60,008 nt of DNA, taken from the NCBI GenBank assembly GCA_964420145.1, contig CAYQRB010000001.1, positions 1 through 60,008 on the forward strand. Reading direction: 5' to 3'. Below are positions 5,014-52,384 of this stretch, piece after piece (within the stretch, counting starts at the first letter, position 1; every line of letters begins with the position of its first letter). Below the pieces are notes generated by a model, which saw nothing but the letters and a program-made list of their open reading frames with translations, made no database searches and was not told the origin of the DNA. The DNA is from an uncultured Candidatus Saccharibacteria bacterium (lineage in GTDB: Bacteria; Patescibacteriota; Dojkabacteria; B142; OLB20). A program made the translations under genes and the position numbers.

Positions 5014-5712
5014 TTAAGGTGCACACTTCATACCACCACCGGAATTCATACACGATAGACCGCCACAACAATCTGCATCAGAGCTACAATGAGAGCCTGC
5101 CCCCTTACATGTACTAGAAGGAACCCCACCCAAAGATTTACTACTGTTTACACTACATCCAGAAGGAGGAGAGGAAGAAAACCTTACCACATCAATATAT
5201 TGTTTCCCTCCATTTTCACAACAAATAACATACATACTGGCTGCAGAAGGATTAGCTTTGCGAAAATCACTTGTCATTTGCATATAGGATATTCTTTTCC
5301 CTCCTTCAACTTTTCCCTGAAAATAAAATCTACCTGAAGCAGGACCTCCACTCGCACATTGCTGAAGGTTATCGACCCAGTTCCAAGGAGCACCAACACC
5401 TACAAATACCCCGACCAAAGAAATAACTGCAAAAAATAGAAGAAAATAAGTAATACCTATCCATACACTTTTAATAGTTTTCCAACCCTTTTCGATTTTT
5501 TGAGTATCTCCAAGACTAGAAATAATACTATAACCACCATAAAGAGAAAAACCAACCCAAACAATTACCAGAATAGTTATAAAAACAACTAAGCCCTGTC
5601 CAATAGCAGAGAAAATCCCTTTCTCAAAAAATCCTCCATAAGAAGGGAGATCTAAGAATATTTCTGAATCGGGAATTCCGACTTGATTGTATATACCAGT
5701 TAATTTATCCAT
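5014..5712 (-). CDS. pilin-family paralog (232 aa) with large C-terminal Cys-rich domain ending in a knottin-like motif
   Basis: No cleavable signal peptide is apparent. Core LVVFITILVIVWVGFSLYGG...SLGDTQKIEKGWKTIKSVWIGITYFLLFFAVISLVGVF. C-terminal CKGAGSHCSSDADCCGGLSCMNSGGGMKC. Confidence 0.55.
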   Translation of the reverse strand: MDKLTGIYNQVGIPDSEIFLDLPSYGGFFEKGIFSAIGQGLVVFITILVIVWVGFSLYGGYSIISSLGDTQKIEKGWKTIKSVWIGITYFLLFFAVISLVGVFVGVGAPWNWVDNLQQCASGGPASGRFYFQGKVEGGKRISYMQMTSDFRKANPSAASMYVICCENGGKQYIDVVRFSSSPPSGCSVNSSKSLGGVPSSTCKGAGSHCSSDADCCGGLSCMNSGGGMKCAP

Positions 5713-5726
5713 TCAACTCATATAAT

Positions 5727-6449
5727 TTAAGGTGCAGGTAATAAACAGTATCTGATATCTGTGCCTCCTGGGCTACGACAAACATAACCAGGTTCACAAA
5801 CAACATATCCGACACCACTACACTGTTTAGAATGTCCAATAACTCTAGGTTGCGGAACAATCGAAATATCAAATAAACTCCCTGTCAAGCCGACAACTAG
5901 TGCTGTAACCTGTACAATTGCAATAAACAAAAAAGTAATTAAAGCACCTAGTACTGCATTTTTCGCTATTGAGGAAGCTTTTTCTATTTTTTCGGTATTG
6001 TCTGACGCAGTAGATCTCTCCCATACCACCCAGAAAGCTATTATTACCTGTACAAAGATTAGAAAGCTAATCACCGCATAAACACCAAGCCTCACAATAG
6101 TCATCATACAGTATGGATCATCTGGAGGCCTTTGTGCTGGGTCGGGACAAAGCTCTATAGAAAACAGATTAAAGGCGGGTCTTACCTTCTTGGGAACCTC
6201 GGGCCACAAACTTGCTGGATCTAGAGTTTTACATACAGAAGGTTGGCCAAATTCACAACTTTTTCCTCCAGTAACACAGCTTCTGGCACAGGTTTTGTTA
6301 CACACGGGATTACGAAAACCCCCACTAGTCGTATATGCTATGCAAGTCGGTTCTGGGACCAACTCATCCGTACCCTGTGCCTCCACCCTATTCCAGAGCA
6401 AAGGAATAAGAAAGAAAAGTATTATTAAAAAAAATAATTTTTTAAACAT
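5727..6449 (-). CDS. pilin-family paralog (240 aa) with Cys-rich domains on both sides of the two-helix core
   Basis: Signal peptide ending RVEAQG. N-terminal domain contains 10 Cys. Core VYAVISFLIFVQVIIAFWVVWERSTASDNTEKIEKASSIAKNAVLGALITFLFIAIVQV. The C-terminal domain has 4 Cys. Confidence 0.55.
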   Translation of the reverse strand: MFKKLFFLIILFFLIPLLWNRVEAQGTDELVPEPTCIAYTTSGGFRNPVCNKTCARSCVTGGKSCEFGQPSVCKTLDPASLWPEVPKKVRPAFNLFSIELCPDPAQRPPDDPYCMMTIVRLGVYAVISFLIFVQVIIAFWVVWERSTASDNTEKIEKASSIAKNAVLGALITFLFIAIVQVTALVVGLTGSLFDISIVPQPRVIGHSKQCSGVGYVVCEPGYVCRSPGGTDIRYCLLPAP

Positions 6450-34599: not shown

Positions 34600-34673
34600 T
34601 TAATTACTAACTTAGTGAAGAAGGGTGTGATTCCCTCACTGTGCCGCAGCGGTAAAAGTCCGACCCTAATTAG
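34600..34673 (+). promoter_or_regulatory. compact cobalamin (B12) riboswitch-like aptamer
   Basis: UUAAUUAC...UAGUGAAGAAGGGUGUGAUUCCCUCACUGUGCCGCAGCGGUAAAAGUCCGACCCUAAUUAG. P1 is 34600-34606 paired with 34667-34673. A nested stem AGUGA/UCACU encloses a GGG-UGUGAUU-CCC hairpin. The GCCGCAGCGGUAA and AGUCCGA blocks resemble the conserved Cbl core as I recall it from btuB-type and short class-II examples. Confidence 0.6.
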
Positions 34674-34691
34674 TCAATCTATTTTAAATGA

Positions 34692-43367: not shown

Positions 43368-43615
43368 ATTATATAACAGATACGCTCCTCTGTCCCCTGA
43401 GACAAGAGTTAAAAAAACACAAAAGAATCGCTTATGGGAGTGATATTCCTGGAAAAACCCCGTTATTGGTAAAGATGGCAGGAATAGACACAGACCATAA
43501 CTCAGGTTAAGTTCAAACTTCGCTCATGCTCGTTTTCACTAACACCTGGTATATCGAACCCTACGGGTTCTTCAGTTAGATATCCACACCGCTTTCGACT
43601 TTATCGGAATCACTG

Positions 43616-44059
43616 TGGAGATGGCGGGAATCGAACCCGCGTCCAAACCTGACCAAAACCTCCCACTACAAGTTTAGTTAATTTGGTTTGAAGTAGCTTG
43701 ATCAAAATTAACAAAAGCCAAACTACTTTGATTTATAAATTCTTGGGGTTTAAGTATAAATCAAACTTAAACCTTGTATTTCGACTATGTTGCTCCTCTA
43801 TCCCCTCGCCGAAAGAAGGAAAATAGAGAAGGTTGCCGATTTAATTAGGCAACAGCAAAGTTAATAGCTGGCTCTATGCCAAAAAATGCAGCTACTTTCG
43901 CAGATGCACTATCAAACATTGCTATAAATTTGTTTTTGACGCTTATTGTCAAATCTCTGATTACTCAGAGCCATTATGTCTTTGTTTAACGAAGCGACAC
44001 AATGAACACCTCGACCTGCGGTAGATCTCGGTTCAAATCTGTCGAAGCCGATCATCCCC
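43616..44059 (-). ncRNA. ssrA: tmRNA (SsrA)
   Basis: 5' GGGGATGATCGGCTTCGACAG... and 3' ...GGACGCGGGTTCGATTCCCGCCATCTCCA. The acceptor stem GGGGATG/CATCTCC includes the G3-U wobble. T-arm GCGGG-TTCGATT-CCCGC. The internal tag frame ends ...GCT ATT AAC TTT GCT GTT GCC TAA (AINFAVA*). CCA is not encoded. Confidence 0.9.
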
Positions 44060-44206: not shown

Positions 44207-45451
44207 ATGCAACATAACATCGTCTTAATTGACGACAACTTTGCGATACGGCAGATTATCGAAGTATTTTTTGCCCGCTTAGAAAAAAAATATTTAATAG
44301 ATATCAATGTGTTTTCGGCTGATAACGGAGTTGAAGGACTTGGCTATGTCTATATTATGACACCACAAATCGTGATAGTGGATACGACCTTGCCCAAATA
44401 TTCTGGTCGAGAGGTTTTGGACTTTTTTATTCAAAACCCTAAATTCCACGGTCAAGATACTCGGGTAATCGTCTTGCACGAATTATCAACAATCGAGGTA
44501 AATCTACCACCTGATTTTTATTTAATTAGAAAAGATCAACCACAGTCTTTTCATCAACTTTCAGAGCTCCTGATCGAGTTACTAAAAATATCTGATTACA
44601 GCAAGACAAAAGCACTGTTTAATAAATTAGCAAACTTTGTGTTTCATAACAGTAACGAAGATGACTTACTCTTGAGGAGACTAGAAGGGAAATCTCTTTT
44701 AAGCAGGTTGGTACTACGGATAAAGTGGGTTTGGTTAGAATTCACCAGTAGTATAACCTTAACCCTATTATTGCTGATTTTTGGAAAACCCAACGATAAT
44801 AATGTGACTCCAAAAGGTAGTAAAAAAGAAACTTTTCGATTCAAACACTATCCAATTCTTATTATCTCTATTTTTTCATTTGCCATAATAGTAATCAATT
44901 TCAGTCTATTTTTCCTTGGACGGATAAACACCAACGACCTTACTGGTGGAAATATCATATTGGAAGGAAATTACACTCCTTCTCCCGAGTCGATTACTAA
45001 TCATCCTACATTTAGATCAATCACCTTAAACATAACTCAAACAATCAATTCTACAAAAGAACACAGGAGTTCTTCTACTAGCTTATTTGATACAGTTACA
45101 GGAGTAGGAGAAAATATTCAATTTTTAAATAATAGACTTAGGTATTTTTTATCAATGCAGTTTATACCAGATAATAAAAAAATCCTCTCCCCTACAAATC
45201 TCAATTTATTATTATTTTTTATAACCATCATTGTTATTTCTTTGCTATCTAAGAACAGACGATTTTTCCTCTGGAAAAAAGATTATGAATCGGTAAACTC
45301 ATTTGAACTTGGACTCATAATCCTTGCTATTGGATTTACCTACGGAGCATTTGTAATTACTGATACACTGACTCTGATCAACTATATAGTCTTTACCCTA
45401 TATCTACTTATAATTGTATTAGCAGGAGTATTTTACCTTATAAAAGACTAG
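44207..45451 (+). CDS. response-regulator receiver domain fused to a polytopic membrane domain
   Basis: REC motifs NIVLIDDN, QIVIVDTTLPKYSGREVL and VIVLHE. The C-terminal ~240 aa carry about 5 TM helices. No histidine kinase nearby. Confidence 0.6.
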   Translation: MQHNIVLIDDNFAIRQIIEVFFARLEKKYLIDINVFSADNGVEGLGYVYIMTPQIVIVDTTLPKYSGREVLDFFIQNPKFHGQDTRVIVLHELSTIEVNLPPDFYLIRKDQPQSFHQLSELLIELLKISDYSKTKALFNKLANFVFHNSNEDDLLLRRLEGKSLLSRLVLRIKWVWLEFTSSITLTLLLLIFGKPNDNNVTPKGSKKETFRFKHYPILIISIFSFAIIVINFSLFFLGRINTNDLTGGNIILEGNYTPSPESITNHPTFRSITLNITQTINSTKEHRSSSTSLFDTVTGVGENIQFLNNRLRYFLSMQFIPDNKKILSPTNLNLLLFFITIIVISLLSKNRRFFLWKKDYESVNSFELGLIILAIGFTYGAFVITDTLTLINYIVFTLYLLIIVLAGVFYLIKD

Positions 45452-46872
45452 TTGCTTTTGGAAACTCTCTGTCCCTCAGGAGTATCCTCTACTATGAGTG
45501 CATATTCTTTTTGTAATATATCTCTTAATTGATCTGACTCATCCCATTTACCCATTTTCCTTGCTAATTCTCGTTTATCAAGAAGAGCCCTTGCTTTATC
45601 CGAAATATCAGTTTTGTTTTGTTTTAATAAATTCAACCCCAGCACTTTGTCAAAATCTGCTATTGTAGCTAGTTTTGTTTCAATATCCAGGTCAGATTTT
45701 ATAACTTCCCAAAGCAAAGCCAACCCTTCAGGAATATTAAAATCATTTTCGAGAGCTTTAGTAAATCTGTCTTGATATTCCTTCGATACCTCTCCTGGCG
45801 TATGGCTCTCACTCATAAGTGCTATTTGTTTTTTTAATCTATTAAAAGCTTGTTGTGAAGCGGAAAGAGCATCCCAAGTAAAGTTTTGTTTAGAACGATA
45901 ATGTGCATTAAGATAAAAATACCTTAGTGATAGAGGTTCATATTTTCTAGTAATCACATCATCAAGGGTATACGCAGTACCTTCTGATTTGCTCATTTTT
46001 TTCCCTTCGAAAAGTAAGTGTTCGTTGTGTAACCAATAGTTTACAAATTTCACATCGTTTGTTGCCTCACTTTGAGCAATCTCGTTGGTATGGTGAATTG
46101 AAATATGCTCTACCCCACCCATATGTAAATCTATAGTTTTACCCAGTAGGCTTCCTGCCATAGCACTACATTCAATATGCCAACCCGGAATACCCTCCCC
46201 ATTTTTGACTTCTTTAGAATTAAAAGGAGATGGCCAGTACTGTAAAGCGTTTGTATGTGATCCTGTCTTAAAAAACCACAACGCAAAGTCTTGTGAATCC
46301 TTTTTGTTTGGATCTGACACTTCTCCTTTCCCCTCTCCTGCTTTATTTTTTTCTAATCTTTGTCCACTTAGTTGTGTATAGTTCGGAAATTTTGCAACTT
46401 CAAAATATACTGCCTTGTCTGTTTCATAGGCATATCCTTTCTTTAACAATACTTTAATCATATCTTGTATTTGAGAGATATATTTACTTGCAACAGGTTT
46501 TTTATCCGGCTCTAAAACATTGATAGCTTTTGTATCTTTTTCAAAAATATCTATATATTTTGTAGCAATTGTTTGTGGATCGAGTTTCTCTCGCTTTGAA
46601 GCCTTTTCCATACGATCTTCTCCCATATCCGCATCTCCTAGATTGTCACCTGTAAGATGTCCCACATCTGTATAATTTCGGACAAAGTTTACATCGTAAC
46701 CCAAATAAGTCAAACTTCTACGGATAAGATCTGCCATAACCATTCCCCTCAGGTTTCCAATTTGTTGAACCCAATACACAGTTGGACCACAATGATAAAA
46801 ACTAACCTTTTTATCTATTATGGGCTTAAATTCTTCGAGATGTCGGCTTAAGGTGTTATAGATTTTGAGCAT
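45448..46872 (-). CDS. cysS: cysteinyl-tRNA synthetase
   Basis: MLKIYNTLSR...FYHCGPTVY, GWHIECSAM, HHTNEIAQSE, KMSKS and DDFNIPEG all align with CysRS. The HIGH signature reads QIGN. Confidence 0.9.
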   Translation of the reverse strand: MLKIYNTLSRHLEEFKPIIDKKVSFYHCGPTVYWVQQIGNLRGMVMADLIRRSLTYLGYDVNFVRNYTDVGHLTGDNLGDADMGEDRMEKASKREKLDPQTIATKYIDIFEKDTKAINVLEPDKKPVASKYISQIQDMIKVLLKKGYAYETDKAVYFEVAKFPNYTQLSGQRLEKNKAGEGKGEVSDPNKKDSQDFALWFFKTGSHTNALQYWPSPFNSKEVKNGEGIPGWHIECSAMAGSLLGKTIDLHMGGVEHISIHHTNEIAQSEATNDVKFVNYWLHNEHLLFEGKKMSKSEGTAYTLDDVITRKYEPLSLRYFYLNAHYRSKQNFTWDALSASQQAFNRLKKQIALMSESHTPGEVSKEYQDRFTKALENDFNIPEGLALLWEVIKSDLDIETKLATIADFDKVLGLNLLKQNKTDISDKARALLDKRELARKMGKWDESDQLRDILQKEYALIVEDTPEGQRVSKSN

Positions 46873-46887
46873 ATGAGTAAAACTAAG

Positions 46888-47691
46888 TTAATATTTATCA
46901 GTAAAATATTCGTTATTAAATAATAACATTAAAAGCCACAATGGTTTGCCATGTGTAAGATTTTGTGATTTATGTTGCTTAACAGCTCTATATTTTTGAA
47001 AAAGATATTGCCAAACAGGTAGTCGATAAATAGGCGGTGCCTGCTCTATCTTCTTACCATTAGCCATATGCAACGGTAACTTCATATGTTTCAAAACATT
47101 TTTGGGTAGCGTTTTATAGAGTATTTTTATTTTTTTTTGTTTACTAAATACCTCACTATTCACCACATCGTATACCAAAGAAGTTAAAGCAATATGATCA
47201 GGATGTCCGTATAAACCTGCTCTTTCATATACTAAAATCAAATCAGGACTAAATTGATTAACTTCCTTAAGTAGTTTCTTTTTTATTTGCTCAATTCGCC
47301 TATCTATTTGACCATCTTGAAAATTCCACATTTCATAACTATCAACCCCCAAAATTTCTATAGCATTGTTGTATTCGATCTCTCTTGTTTTGGCAAGTTC
47401 AGCTTCTGGTATTTTAAGTAATTCATCTCCCTTCTCCCCTTTGGTTATACAAATATGCTTTATATCCACTCTTTGATCTTCACCAAACTTTGATAGGAAA
47501 CCACCAGAAGTCATAGTTTCATCGTCTGGATGTGGATCTATAGCCAAAATTTTGTATTCCTTTTTTTTACCAAGTAGTTTTTCTATATGTAGTATTGGGA
47601 GGTCATATCTATTTAAATAAATATTTAGTACTAAATAACAACCTCCAAGCAGAAATACTAGTCCTGATAATATACCGGTAATTTCTAACAT
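46888..47691 (-). CDS. membrane-anchored PIG-L/LmbE-family N-acetylglucosaminyl deacetylase
   Basis: N-terminal TM helix, then AIDPHPDDETMTSGG and GHPDHIA zinc-binding signatures. Confidence 0.8.
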   Translation of the reverse strand: MLEITGILSGLVFLLGGCYLVLNIYLNRYDLPILHIEKLLGKKKEYKILAIDPHPDDETMTSGGFLSKFGEDQRVDIKHICITKGEKGDELLKIPEAELAKTREIEYNNAIEILGVDSYEMWNFQDGQIDRRIEQIKKKLLKEVNQFSPDLILVYERAGLYGHPDHIALTSLVYDVVNSEVFSKQKKIKILYKTLPKNVLKHMKLPLHMANGKKIEQAPPIYRLPVWQYLFQKYRAVKQHKSQNLTHGKPLWLLMLLFNNEYFTDKY

Positions 47692-47700
47692 AGTACTAAA

Positions 47701-47750
47701 TTAAAAAATAAAAAGACCCCGTGCTTGTCTTATAGACAAAAACAGGGCCT
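47701..47750 (-). terminator. intrinsic terminator of the T-box leader
   Basis: AGGCCCUGUUUUUGUC-UAUAA-GACAAGCACGGGGUCU (one mismatch, a few G-U pairs) plus a U-tract ending 9 nt before the PIG-L ATG. Confidence 0.75.
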
Positions 47751-47872
47751 CTTGAGCTGGCGGTCCCACCTGTGGTTATACTTAGGGGTTGGGTATTTAG
47801 ATTTTTGCAGTTTTAGCGAAATACTGTCCGCTTCATTTATCGGTTTTCAACTATTTCCGATTTTCTGATTAA
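47701..47872 (-). promoter_or_regulatory. T-box riboswitch leader (antiterminator/terminator switch)
   Basis: Minus strand CAGG-UGGGACC-GCC-(9 nt loop)-GGC-CCUG gives helix A1 (47772-47769/47746-47743), a 7-nt UGGNACC bulge (47768-47762) and helix A2. The 3' strand overlaps a 16-bp terminator stem (47750-47735/47729-47714) followed by UUUUUAUUUUUU. A UGC-A candidate Cys specifier lies at 47809-47806. Confidence 0.75.
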
Positions 47873-47876
47873 AGTA

Positions 47877-47905
47877 ATTATAACAAAGCATATTCAGGAA
47901 AACAA
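47877..47905 (-). promoter_or_regulatory. sigma70-like promoter (TTGTTT-17 nt-TATAAT) of the T-box-PIG-L-cysS unit
   Basis: Minus strand TTGTTT (47905-47900), a 17-nt spacer and a perfect TATAAT (47882-47877). Confidence 0.5.
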
Positions 47906-49648: not shown

Positions 49649-52384
49649 ATGCTTCCCAAAGGGCCATATCAACCACAACTTACCGAAAGTGAAATTCTAA
49701 AATTTTGGCTGGATAATAAGTTTTACTCACCAGAATACAGAAGCGAAAAGGAGCTCTCTACTGCAAAAGAGGAAAACCGAGAAGCGTTCACAATAGTTCT
49801 CCCTCCCCCTAATGCAAACGGAAACCTACATTTAGGACATATGTCTGGTTATGCGTACCAGGACTTGATGGGAAGACTTGCTCGTATGCAAGGGAAAAAG
49901 GTGCTTCTACTACCGGGAAAAGATCACGCTGGAATCCAAACAGAAGTTGTATTTGAAAAAGAACTTGAGAAACAAGGAAAATCTAAGAAAGAGTTAGGAA
50001 GAGAAAAGTTCTATCAACTTTGTTATGACTTTTGTACACAAAAAGCAGAGAACGCCAGAAACCAAGAAAAGAAAATAGGACTAAGTGCAGATTTTGATCG
50101 TGAGCTTTTTACCCTAGATCCTAAAATTGTAAAAGAAGTTATGAAGGCCTTTGAGTTGATGTATCAAGATAATCTAATTTACCGTGATAAAAGGATAATC
50201 AACTGGTGTACAAGATGTCAGTCTGCACTAGCAGACATTGATACTGAGTTCAAAGATTCGGTGAGCCCGTTTTATTATTTTAAGTACAGTTTTATAAACC
50301 CAGAGCCAGAAGCTATACGACTAAAAAACCAATTTGAAGGACAAATAATAAACTGGGAAGTCAAACAATCACAAAACAAAGATGGGGAATCACTCCCTCC
50401 GTTCATACTTGGGGAGTATGAGAACACAGAAATCATAGGTATTGGGTATAACGATACTACGATAGTATCCAATAGAAAAGGGAAAGTAGTTGGGATAGAA
50501 ATGAGATTAGATAATAAATTTAGAATAGTAGTTATAAATGAAAACTTTGATGGAGATATAAAAACAGAAATAAGTAAAGTGTTTCTGTTTGAGTCACGAC
50601 TCTATGCAGGAGCTCATATTATATTATTCGATGAATACCCCGACAATAAATATTATACCAATGGTTTTATTTTAGGGACTGTACGACCAGAAACCAAGTT
50701 TGGAGATACTGCTTTGGCAGTTGATCCAGATGATCAAAGATACAAAAACTATGTTAATAATAAATTTGATGTACAGACTCTCATAGGAACAACTACAATC
50801 ACAATAATAGCTGATAATGCAGTAGATGAAGGTTTTGGAACCGGAATGGTCAAAGTTACCCCTGCCCACTCTATAGAAGACTGGGATATTGCACAACGCC
50901 ACAAAAACAAAGCAATGCCCGAAAAACAAGTCATCGGTTTTGATGGAAAACTAAACCATCTAACAGGACGGTACGAAGGAATGACAGTCAAAGAAGCTCG
51001 CAAAGCTATGATTCCAGATATGGTGAAAAGCGGAACACTCGTTTATCTTGATAATAATTACACCAATAGGATTCGAATCTGTGAACGATGCAAATACCCT
51101 ATAGAACCTCTAATTTCTTATCAATGGTTTGTTGATACCAAACCATTAAAAACAGAAGCTAAAAGACTTGTAGAACAAGGATTTACTAATATTATGCCAG
51201 AAGGAAAGAAAAAGACCTATATACAGTGGATGAATACAGAGGAAGATTGGTGCATAACAAGGCAACTTTGGTGGGGTTATCGTTTACCAGTATGGTATAA
51301 AGGAAAAAGGGAGCAATATATTACAGAAACGGGAGAAGTCAAAGAAAAAATTGCTGGTAAAATTATCGATAGAACCGAAGATTACAAAGGATTGTTACAA
51401 GTAAGGTCGGATAATCCCAATACAAATTCAGCCGACGAATGGCAACAAGATACAGATGTACTCGATACCTGGTTTTCATCAGGACAGTGGCCGTTTGTTA
51501 CTTTGATGGTAAAAGATGGTGATTACGAGAACTTCTACCCCACTCAAGTTATGGAAACCGGTTGGGATATCTTACTATTCTGGGTAACTCGAATGATGCT
51601 TTTAAACCCTTACCGAGCAAACCACTACAACAAAAATATAGATCGCACACAAAAGACTTCCTCCAACATTTTGAATTTCAAAGATCAAGAAAATAAAATT
51701 ATCCCATTTAAATCTGTCTATTTACATGGATTAGTCTTAGATAAAAATGGTGTTAAGATGAGTAAATCCAAAGGTAACGGGATTGACCCTTTTGAAATGA
51801 TGCAAAAATATGGAACAGATGCTTTGCGGTTTAGTTTCATCAAAGGGAACTCTGTAGGTCAAAACTATCGTCTATACGAAGAAAAAATTGCATCTAATAG
51901 AAATTTTTGTAACAAAATATGGAATGCTTCTAAGTTTGTACTTTTCAATATTGACGACAATGCGGACAAGTTAATAACCTTAACACAGCAGGAGTTATCC
52001 CTAACTGATAGCGATAAGGTTTTCCTTAAACATATAGAGGGGTTGATCACAGAAACTACTAGAAGACTCTCTGATTTTCAGTTTGGAATAGCTGCAGACG
52101 AATTGTATGACTCATTCTGGCATCAATTTGCAGATATTTATCTGGAACAGATTAAAACTAGGCTTTACACTAAGGATCGTGATGGTAATCCAATTAACAC
52201 TACTTCTGTAGAAAAAGAAAGTAGACTATCTGCACAATGGATGCTACTCTACTCACTCGAAGTTTACCTAAAACTCCTACATCCATTTATGCCATTTATT
52301 ACCGAAAATATCTGGCAAGCTCTTCCCAAGCATAACAGTGAGTCAGAAACTATAATGTACTCGAGGTGGCCAGAAGTTTCCTAA
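49649..52384 (+). CDS. valS: valyl-tRNA synthetase
   Basis: PPPNANGNLHLGH (HIGH), TVRPETKFGDTALAV editing-domain motif, DVLDTWFSS, KMSKSKGN. Confidence 0.95.
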   Translation: MLPKGPYQPQLTESEILKFWLDNKFYSPEYRSEKELSTAKEENREAFTIVLPPPNANGNLHLGHMSGYAYQDLMGRLARMQGKKVLLLPGKDHAGIQTEVVFEKELEKQGKSKKELGREKFYQLCYDFCTQKAENARNQEKKIGLSADFDRELFTLDPKIVKEVMKAFELMYQDNLIYRDKRIINWCTRCQSALADIDTEFKDSVSPFYYFKYSFINPEPEAIRLKNQFEGQIINWEVKQSQNKDGESLPPFILGEYENTEIIGIGYNDTTIVSNRKGKVVGIEMRLDNKFRIVVINENFDGDIKTEISKVFLFESRLYAGAHIILFDEYPDNKYYTNGFILGTVRPETKFGDTALAVDPDDQRYKNYVNNKFDVQTLIGTTTITIIADNAVDEGFGTGMVKVTPAHSIEDWDIAQRHKNKAMPEKQVIGFDGKLNHLTGRYEGMTVKEARKAMIPDMVKSGTLVYLDNNYTNRIRICERCKYPIEPLISYQWFVDTKPLKTEAKRLVEQGFTNIMPEGKKKTYIQWMNTEEDWCITRQLWWGYRLPVWYKGKREQYITETGEVKEKIAGKIIDRTEDYKGLLQVRSDNPNTNSADEWQQDTDVLDTWFSSGQWPFVTLMVKDGDYENFYPTQVMETGWDILLFWVTRMMLLNPYRANHYNKNIDRTQKTSSNILNFKDQENKIIPFKSVYLHGLVLDKNGVKMSKSKGNGIDPFEMMQKYGTDALRFSFIKGNSVGQNYRLYEEKIASNRNFCNKIWNASKFVLFNIDDNADKLITLTQQELSLTDSDKVFLKHIEGLITETTRRLSDFQFGIAADELYDSFWHQFADIYLEQIKTRLYTKDRDGNPINTTSVEKESRLSAQWMLLYSLEVYLKLLHPFMPFITENIWQALPKHNSESETIMYSRWPEVS

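Follow-up and report, generated by a model that had tools for sequence, protein, structure and literature searches.

The window analysed here is a stretch of 60,008 nucleotides (nt) of contig CAYQRB010000001.1, whose minus strand carries a gene for a PIG-L/LmbE-family deacetylase followed by cysS, with a short structured leader in front of the two genes. The order ComF-like gene, leader, PIG-L, cysS is common to the contigs of relatives, and only 11 nt separate the U-tract of the leader from the ATG of PIG-L. By its profile score, the gene downstream of PIG-L is a true cysteine-tRNA ligase (CysRS) gene; an MshC-like ligase was rejected as its identity, the MshC score being far below its cut-off. 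Homologues of the window PIG-L carry the name Candidatus Dojkabacteria, and the organism is contained in activated-sludge and wastewater metagenomes. We propose, with a probability of roughly 85%, that the leader is a transcription-attenuating tRNA-Cys T-box riboswitch of the PIG-L/cysS operon in a Dojkabacteria-like bacterium of the Candidate Phyla Radiation (CPR). In hand for this proposal are the elements of the leader, their conservation and covariation, two mutually exclusive helices, and a fit with tRNA-Cys of CPR bacteria. The features are collected in Table 1.

Table 1. Features of the leader and operon in the window, and Cys-run mini-ORFs (open reading frames) at related loci
Feature	Position	Strand	Detail	Basis
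Possible -35 element	47905-47900	-	TTGTTT	position upstream of -10
Promoter, extended -10	47877..47885	-	TGtTATAAT; TATAAT 47882-47877, TG 47885-84	
Predicted transcription start	near 47870	-		-10 box
T-loop 1 ('AG bulge')	47862..47866	-	AGAAA, essentially at the RNA 5' end	AG..A in 14/14 leaders; Rfam aligns it to AGAGA
P1 helix	47839..47861	-	AUCGG 47861-57 / CCGAU 47843-39, capped by 13-nt distal loop	covariation, RNAalifold
T-loop 2	47849-45	-	UGAAA, inside P1 distal loop	UG..A in 14/14 leaders
Linker and P2 hairpin	47816..47838	-	AAAUGAA; GCGGA 47831-27 / UUCGC 47820-16, loop CAGUAU	covariation, minimum-free-energy (MFE) folds
Specifier (Cys)	47807..47809	-	UGC in A-rich single-stranded stretch; A47806 next	conserved Cys codon
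Candidate alternative pairing P3	47769..47786	-	CCU 47786-84 with AGG 47771-69	spans conserved AAGUAUAA; competes with A1
Antiterminator	47742..47773	-	A1 ACAGG/CCUGU, bulge UGGGACC, A2 GCC/GGC, 9-nt loop	GGUGGNACC invariant
A1 strands		-	(A)CAGG 47773-47769 with CCUG(U) 47746-47742	read from sequence
7-nt bulge	47768-47762	-	UGGGACC	read from sequence
A2 strands		-	GCC 47761-59 with GGC 47749-47; 9-nt loop 47758-50	read from sequence
Intrinsic terminator	47703..47749	-	47749-34 with 47730-15, loop AUA, then U5AU6	energy, shuffles, covariation
U5AU6 tract	47714-47703	-		read from sequence
PIG-L start codon	47691	-	ATG	read on minus strand
First regulated gene	46888..47691	-	PIG-L/LmbE-family deacetylase, N-terminal hydrophobic segment	Pfam PF02585, 94.6 bits
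Second regulated gene	45448..46872	-	cysS, cysteine-tRNA ligase	TIGR00435 equivalog, 395.7 bits vs NCBIfam cut-off 340
Cys-run mini-ORF	L010 2892-2936		ends ..IICCPYC, stop	
Cys-run mini-ORF	L017 to 9822		ends ..FICCCC, stop	
Cys-run mini-ORF	L020 9781-9831		ends ..LLCPYCC, stop	
Cys-run mini-ORF	L097 2748-2798		ends ..SCCCPYC, stop	
Cys-run mini-ORF	L096 2759-2815		ends ..FCCCYKPI, stop	
Cys-run mini-ORF	L101 451-501		ends ..SVCCCLPD, stop	
Cys-run mini-ORF	L090 9846-9881			position upstream of PIG-L
Cys-run mini-ORF	L179 2941-2967, same in L180		MRKCCCCR, stop	

The 3' half of the leader holds two folds that exclude each other, the 5' strand of the terminator overlapping the 3' strand of the antiterminator. 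A preliminary description of this DNA had drawn the antiterminator with helix A1, a 7-nt bulge, helix A2 and a 9-nt loop, and each part is found where it was drawn. It had also proposed a competing 16-bp terminator; the position, the overlap and the U5AU6 tract are correct, while one of the 16 positions turns out to be a U.C mismatch. The antiterminator as drawn has a free energy of -7.0 kcal/mol. The terminator reaches -19.8 kcal/mol over its 16 positions and -29.3 kcal/mol as the extended MFE hairpin, and its region has z = -4.5 against shuffled sequences. Because these energies lie far below that of the antiterminator, termination is taken to be the default state. The box GGUGGNACCGC occurs once in the 60 kb window, where neither a motif count nor a covariance model of the family (R1, described below) revealed a second copy of the leader element.

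The contigs of relatives were retrieved through PIG-L homologues, and leaders were taken from a motif scan and manual inspection. Together with the window, 14 distinct leaders were obtained (window, L001, L002, L004, L006, L012, L014, L093, L094, L172, L173, L174, L176 and L179), all upstream of PIG-L-cysS operons on Dojkabacteria-like contigs. The comparison of cysS leaders advised in the preliminary description thus yields 13 further leaders, and they share one layout with that of the window. A scan of 1.8 Mb of fetched loci for GGUGGNACC found instances in leader context only in the PIG-L leaders. The PIG-L proteins of the relatives are 42-66% identical to that of the window; the leaders are nonetheless conserved and carry compensatory changes. 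A 400-nt leader at L011 and a short leader at L010 were considered as T-boxes and rejected.

The common layout begins with the promoter. The TATAAT box, predicted earlier upstream of a short leader, is invariant in all 14 members; TG at -15/-14 accompanies it in 9 of the 14, and several leaders have a TTGC-type -35 element at 16-17 nt. The AG bulge follows the -10 box after 7-11 nt in every leader and reads AGAAA, AGAGA, AGUGA or AGCAA. Next come the 5-bp helix P1 with a loop of 11-14 nt that ends in R-N-UG..A-N, the linker AACUGARG, the hairpin P2, usually with the loop CAGUA, and an A-rich strand carrying UGC or UGU. From P1 to this specifier, 11 of 13 leaders have a spacing of 28 nt; the window has 29 nt and L176 has 36 nt. 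After the specifier, about 35 nt containing GAGUAnAA lead to the 5' strand of A1, the UGGNACC bulge and A2 with a loop or hairpin of variable length. The 3' strands of A2 and A1, then the terminator and its U-tract, complete the leader.

Covariation supports the drawn helices. In an alignment of the 12 close leaders without L176 and L179 (A4), they are 89-91% paired, compared with 27-49% when the partner strands are slid by 1-3 columns. P1 shows compensatory changes at all five of its pairs, with 98% of cells paired, P2 at three of five, and the upper terminator at two. RNAalifold recovers P1, P2 and the full terminator de novo, and P1 and P2 are also present in the MFE folds of single sequences. 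A1 and A2 are almost invariant among the 12 close leaders. Their compensatory changes are found in the divergent L176 and L179, which were misaligned (L176) by MAFFT and were therefore both analysed by explicit strand tables: the first A1 pair changes from C-G to A-U in both, the second from A-U to G-C in L179, and the first A2 pair from G-C to A-U in L176. The covariance model R1, built from the 12 leaders, matches the held-out L179 with 36.4 bits (E = 7.5e-7). The held-out L176 is its best non-training match, with the exact start and 19.3 bits only; a match of 18.9 bits at L042 lies inside an ORF and was dismissed as chance.

Two further pairings deserve mention. In 10 of 13 leaders, the P2 loop sequence CAGU complements the flank ACUG, and a swap to ACAG/CUGU is seen in L176. 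This pattern suggests an H-type pseudoknot, although its third loop would be 1-2 nt in most members, which is sterically doubtful. The other is the candidate pairing P3, in which 85% of cells are paired across the 12 leaders, L004 having UCCA/UGGG instead. P3 may be an anti-antiterminator of the off state, or it may be a Stem III overlapping A1.

The 5' end of the leader resembles the elbow-binding platform of T-boxes. In PMC3664808, the definition of the double T-loop core comprises six invariant residues (AG..A and UG..A), the middle positions being free, and a platform residue that is a purine and sits two positions before T-loop 2. All 14 leaders carry the double T-loop residues and this purine, and the middle positions vary freely. 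By sequence, the leader conforms to the definition of a double T-loop elbow platform.

Twelve leaders have the specifier UGC, and two have UGU: L173 and L179, from different sub-clades. Cys is encoded by either triplet, and UGC/UGU is the only conserved triplet in the single-stranded stretch. The bias towards UGC agrees with the rule from TBDB that the C-ending codon is preferred in two-codon families (PMC7778990). At the fourth base of UGGN, 10 leaders have G and four have A, which implies a U73 discriminator, because only U pairs with both. In two other CPR genomes, tRNA-Cys(GCA) ends in ...CCAGGCC-U-CCA and therefore has U73; its anticodon GCA is complementary to UGC. The earlier suggestion that the discriminator should pair with the last base of the bulge is thus borne out with these two tRNAs, the tRNA-Cys of the host not having been found in the window.

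Could another tRNA be read? An overlapping YUG triplet (UUG/CUG) might specify Leu, since the base before UG is only U or C and both are synonymous for Leu; or the ligand might be another U73 tRNA such as tRNA-Gly. The Leu specifier was rejected, because CPR tRNA-Leu(CAA) has A73, which pairs with neither G nor A of UGGN. A Gly codon is conserved nowhere in the single-stranded stretch. The regulated synthetase is CysRS, the third position of the specifier varies between C and U, synonymous for Cys, in two separate lineages, and sister lineages place Cys-codon leader peptides at the same site. We consider the chance of a different tRNA close to negligible.

Several observations weigh against a tRNA-Cys T-box. 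At the gathering score of the Rfam T-box family RF00230 (93 bits), no match was found in the window or in 7+7 further loci. A permissive search with the isolated window leader gave 12.1 bits (E = 2.3). The preliminary description had named the lack of a covariance-model hit as grounds for abandoning a T-box, and at the gathering score this is formally the outcome; its word 'canonical' suits the 3' half of the leader and does not suit the whole, which scores 12 bits against 93. The base 3' of the specifier is A in nine leaders, G in one, U in three and C in one; the purine said to follow the proposed Cys specifier is not conserved across the family. Ten of the 14 leaders have UGGG (window position 47765), which gives a G.U wobble with U73; in the T-boxes of TBDB, discriminator pairing is Watson-Crick as a rule and UGGA would be expected (PMC7778990). 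No tRNA genes lie in the window or the syntenic loci, so the host's own tRNA-Cys was not seen. A kink-turn (K-turn), hinge, specifier internal loop or S-turn cannot be drawn in these leaders, and no separate Stem III is evident in those of the window type, where all that can be drawn towards one is CCUG/CAGG overlapping A1 or weak AU helices. When the terminator is left out, RNAalifold prefers to pair GGGACC of the bulge with GGCCC, an alternative closed state. In metatranscriptomes, five short contigs fall within cysS and none on the leader, hence they give no 5' end or termination signal.

Some of these points would also suit an attenuator with a signal different from tRNA, for instance a protein or a small thiol metabolite, with the T-box-like strings being convergent or vestigial: the score below the Rfam threshold, the unusual codon context and the closed fold of the bulge. 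PIG-L also belongs to the family of low-molecular-weight-thiol deacetylases (BshB, MshB, Mca), although the window protein is only a distant relative of these. On such a view, it is hard to see why elbow platform, Cys codon and UGGN are each conserved in the correct 5'-to-3' order, or why the variation is what tRNA-Cys tolerates, namely UGC or UGU, G or A opposite U73, and free T-loop middles. The Rfam T-box is, moreover, the best or only significant family for L176 and L179. We give a non-tRNA signal very little credence.

Since the RF00230 threshold is not reached, the case for a T-box is carried by comparative evidence. L176 matches RF00230 with 32 bits (E = 1e-5), the only match of its search, and L179 with 29.6 bits (E = 3.7e-5), the lowest E-value of its search. 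Both alignments extend from the AG bulge through the distal loop, where GUGAAA is placed on GGUGaaA, and Stem III to the AA linker and the T-box sequence. Stem III is separate in these two leaders and has a purine linker (CUCUG/CAGAG and AAUA in L176, 11 bp and AGA in L179). Because L176 and L179 match RF00230 and have the genomic position and layout of the window leader, we conclude that the family is homologous to T-boxes, although all of its members stay below 93 bits. L174 reaches 11 bits in the permissive search. In the low-scoring window alignment, AGAAA falls on the AG bulge, the distal loop is matched by the next hairpin loop, and the T-box sequence by GGUGGGACCGC. By score and by its missing proximal Stem I, the leader falls outside the Rfam family; in the antiterminator, UGGN, specifier and double T-loop, it is a member. 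With the E-values near 1e-5 of L176 and L179, the covariation and the comparison of the 14 leaders, the earlier idea of a T-box in a PIG-L-cysS operon holds.

The standard Rfam model misses the window leader because the usual lower half of Stem I is absent. An atypical, short Stem I had been anticipated in the preliminary description. The leader is indeed atypical, and it is more than short: the -10 box and the AG bulge are 7-11 nt apart, which leaves no place for a proximal 5' strand. As the -10 box is invariant at this distance, the RNA should start 0-4 nt before the AG bulge. P2 would then act as a spacer between the elbow platform and the specifier.

An ordinary full-length T-box would require the 5' strand of Stem I to lie upstream of TATAAT, with a start further upstream or read-through from the ComF-like gene. 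The Rfam alignments do try upstream bases with the P2 region, CCGG..UUUGU upstream of L176 could pair with ACAGA..CCGG, and a 5' CAG is pairable with CUG after P1 in five members. Yet nothing else is conserved upstream of the promoter across the 14 leaders, while TATAAT and its distance to AG..A stay invariant. In L004, 7 nt separate the stop codon of the upstream gene from the -10 box, and in L176 the promoter is immediately preceded by the upstream gene's intrinsic terminator. The would-be 3' strand of the proximal Stem I is already taken up by the covarying hairpin P2. We regard a hidden full-length Stem I as decidedly unlikely.

Returning to the T-box that starts at its platform, we infer the transcription start, the binding of tRNA, the discrimination between charged and uncharged tRNA and the three-dimensional role of P2 as follows. 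The polymerase would start about 7 nt after TATAAT, and so the RNA would have its 5' end almost on T-loop 1 (AGAAA). Together with T-loop 2 (UGAAA in the P1 loop), T-loop 1 would form a double T-loop platform that stacks on the tRNA elbow. P2, possibly as part of a small pseudoknot, would take the place of the two-stranded proximal Stem I and set the single-stranded UGC 28-29 nt downstream, where it would pair with the anticodon GCA. The 3' end of uncharged tRNA, U73-C-C-A, would then pair with UGGG of the bulge (G.U73, G-C74, G-C75, U-A76). With this pairing, the antiterminator, weak at -7 kcal/mol, would be stabilised against a strong terminator of -20 to -29 kcal/mol, allowing read-through into PIG-L and cysS. 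Charged Cys-tRNA could not stabilise the antiterminator, and transcription would stop at U5AU6.

The adjacency of PIG-L and cysS reaches more distant CPR lineages that do not have the T-box leader. In seven of these lineages, a mini-ORF with a run of Cys codons lies directly upstream of PIG-L on the same strand, for example one encoding MLNITVLNNSCCCPYC before its stop codon. Overlapping hairpins and a U-run follow several of the mini-ORFs. Cys-run ORFs number 66 in 2.6 Mb of strand, so that about 0.008 are expected per 300-nt window; upstream of PIG-L, about seven were observed where less than one is expected. From their sequences, these mini-ORFs look like ribosome-stalling attenuators that sense Cys-tRNA. 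A leader peptide in the window leader was considered and rejected, the only candidate there being a window-specific ORF (AUG AAG CGG...) without Cys.

Both devices are seen in tandem at one locus. L179 carries a T-box-like leader at 2727-2925, with the specifier UGU, UGGA, an 11-bp Stem III and a 20-bp terminator, and its mini-ORF lies between this terminator and the ATG of PIG-L. The tandem arrangement may represent an evolutionary intermediate, or else a way of checking Cys-tRNA twice. Because T-box and Cys-run leaders precede the same operon, we regard this operon as wired to the supply of Cys-tRNA by two devices. Taking these points together, we favour, at somewhat better than even odds, a broader claim. 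The leaders would form a distinct T-box class, so far only in Dojkabacteria-like CPR bacteria, in which the transcript starts at T-loop 1. A local hairpin or pseudoknot spacer would replace the two-stranded 'molecular ruler' half of Stem I and present a single-stranded codon at a fixed 28 nt. The same operon would have switched in evolution between the T-box and the Cys-run leader peptide, with L179 having both.

We notice that the LmbE/PIG-L deacetylase lies directly upstream of cysS in many CPR lineages, whichever type of leader is present. By analogy, its retention beside cysS suggests that a sugar deacetylase is functionally linked to Cys or CysRS. Such a link has precedents in the MshB/MshC and BshB/BshC thiol pathways.

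Other features of the neighbourhood were also recorded. A class-I aminoacyl-tRNA synthetase of 911 aa is encoded in the window at 49649-52384 (+). It is without a histidine-phosphatase domain, and so is the 892-aa version in L173; orthologues are present in L001, L002, L004, L006 and L172, and several of 1100-1300 aa carry a histidine-phosphatase (PF00300) between the halves of the catalytic domain. Dojkabacteria-like sequence of about 230 kb, with metG and class-I synthetase genes among its contents, gave no canonical T-box at the gathering score. At 34604-34676 (+), this reduced CPR genome has a match to the AdoCbl-II (cobalamin) riboswitch aptamer, slightly above the Rfam gathering score (37.4 bits against 36.5). 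At 43613-44059 (-) there is an unusually long transfer-messenger RNA (tmRNA) gene with a 31-residue tag peptide, VKNKFIAMFDSASAKVAAFFGIEPAINFAVA, and the relative L004 keeps the tag (5348-5794).

The T-box serves as the textbook example of a structured RNA that reads another, and descriptions of its Stem I treat it as an obligatory ruler with two strands, measuring from anticodon to elbow. A natural family with both end-points of the ruler and a self-folding middle would show how much of Stem I is needed; if our proposal is true, structural biology would also gain a minimal elbow-plus-codon decoder of about 65 nt. The family would further extend T-box regulation to CPR/Patescibacteria and mean that searches of the Rfam and TBDB type overlook such leaders. 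A membrane-anchored LmbE-type deacetylase and CysRS under two devices that sense Cys-tRNA hint at a Cys-dependent pathway in reduced genomes. TBDB was built from RF00230, with the class II model run on Actinobacteria only (PMC7778990), and for this reason it would not contain these leaders. A full-text literature search found no paper linking T-boxes with CPR, Patescibacteria or Saccharibacteria, so that, as far as we found, a T-box in CPR is unreported so far.

Among known systems, the closest is the T-box of the glyQS type (RF00230, Stem II-less). It has the same order of contacts, from elbow platform through specifier to UGGN bulge, and likewise sets an antiterminator with a 7-nt bulge against an intrinsic terminator, has no Stem II or IIA/B, binds a U73 tRNA and regulates a synthetase gene; its Stem III and purine linker are shared by L176 and L179. 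Unlike it, the present leaders have no two-stranded proximal Stem I, K-turn, hinge or specifier internal loop with S-turn. Their RNA is predicted to start at T-loop 1, a local hairpin precedes the single-stranded specifier, and the purine after the codon is not conserved. They prefer G.U at the discriminator, score 12-32 bits against 93, and come from CPR/Patescibacteria.

The class II ileS T-boxes of Actinobacteria also have a truncated Stem I that is poorly handled by standard models. Their truncation is the opposite one: the distal platform is lost, Stem II and IIA/B compensate, and the Shine-Dalgarno sequence is sequestered (PMC11297988, PMC7778990). In contrast, the leaders described here keep the platform, lose the proximal half and are terminator-based. 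A class II translational T-box was rejected for the window leader, since the platform is present and the expression platform is an intrinsic terminator with a U-tract. The K-turn-less T-boxes of streptococci and staphylococci show that the K-turn is dispensable, and their two-stranded Stem I is otherwise complete, including the specifier internal loop (PMC11404447). Leader-peptide attenuators (trp, his, pheST) follow the same logic of charged-tRNA supply, whereas the window leader has no Cys-rich mini-ORF and would use RNA-tRNA contacts instead. As there is no room for the 5' strand of the lower Stem I, we describe the leader as a novel structural form within a known riboswitch class, platform-first and without a proximal Stem I, in a CPR lineage.

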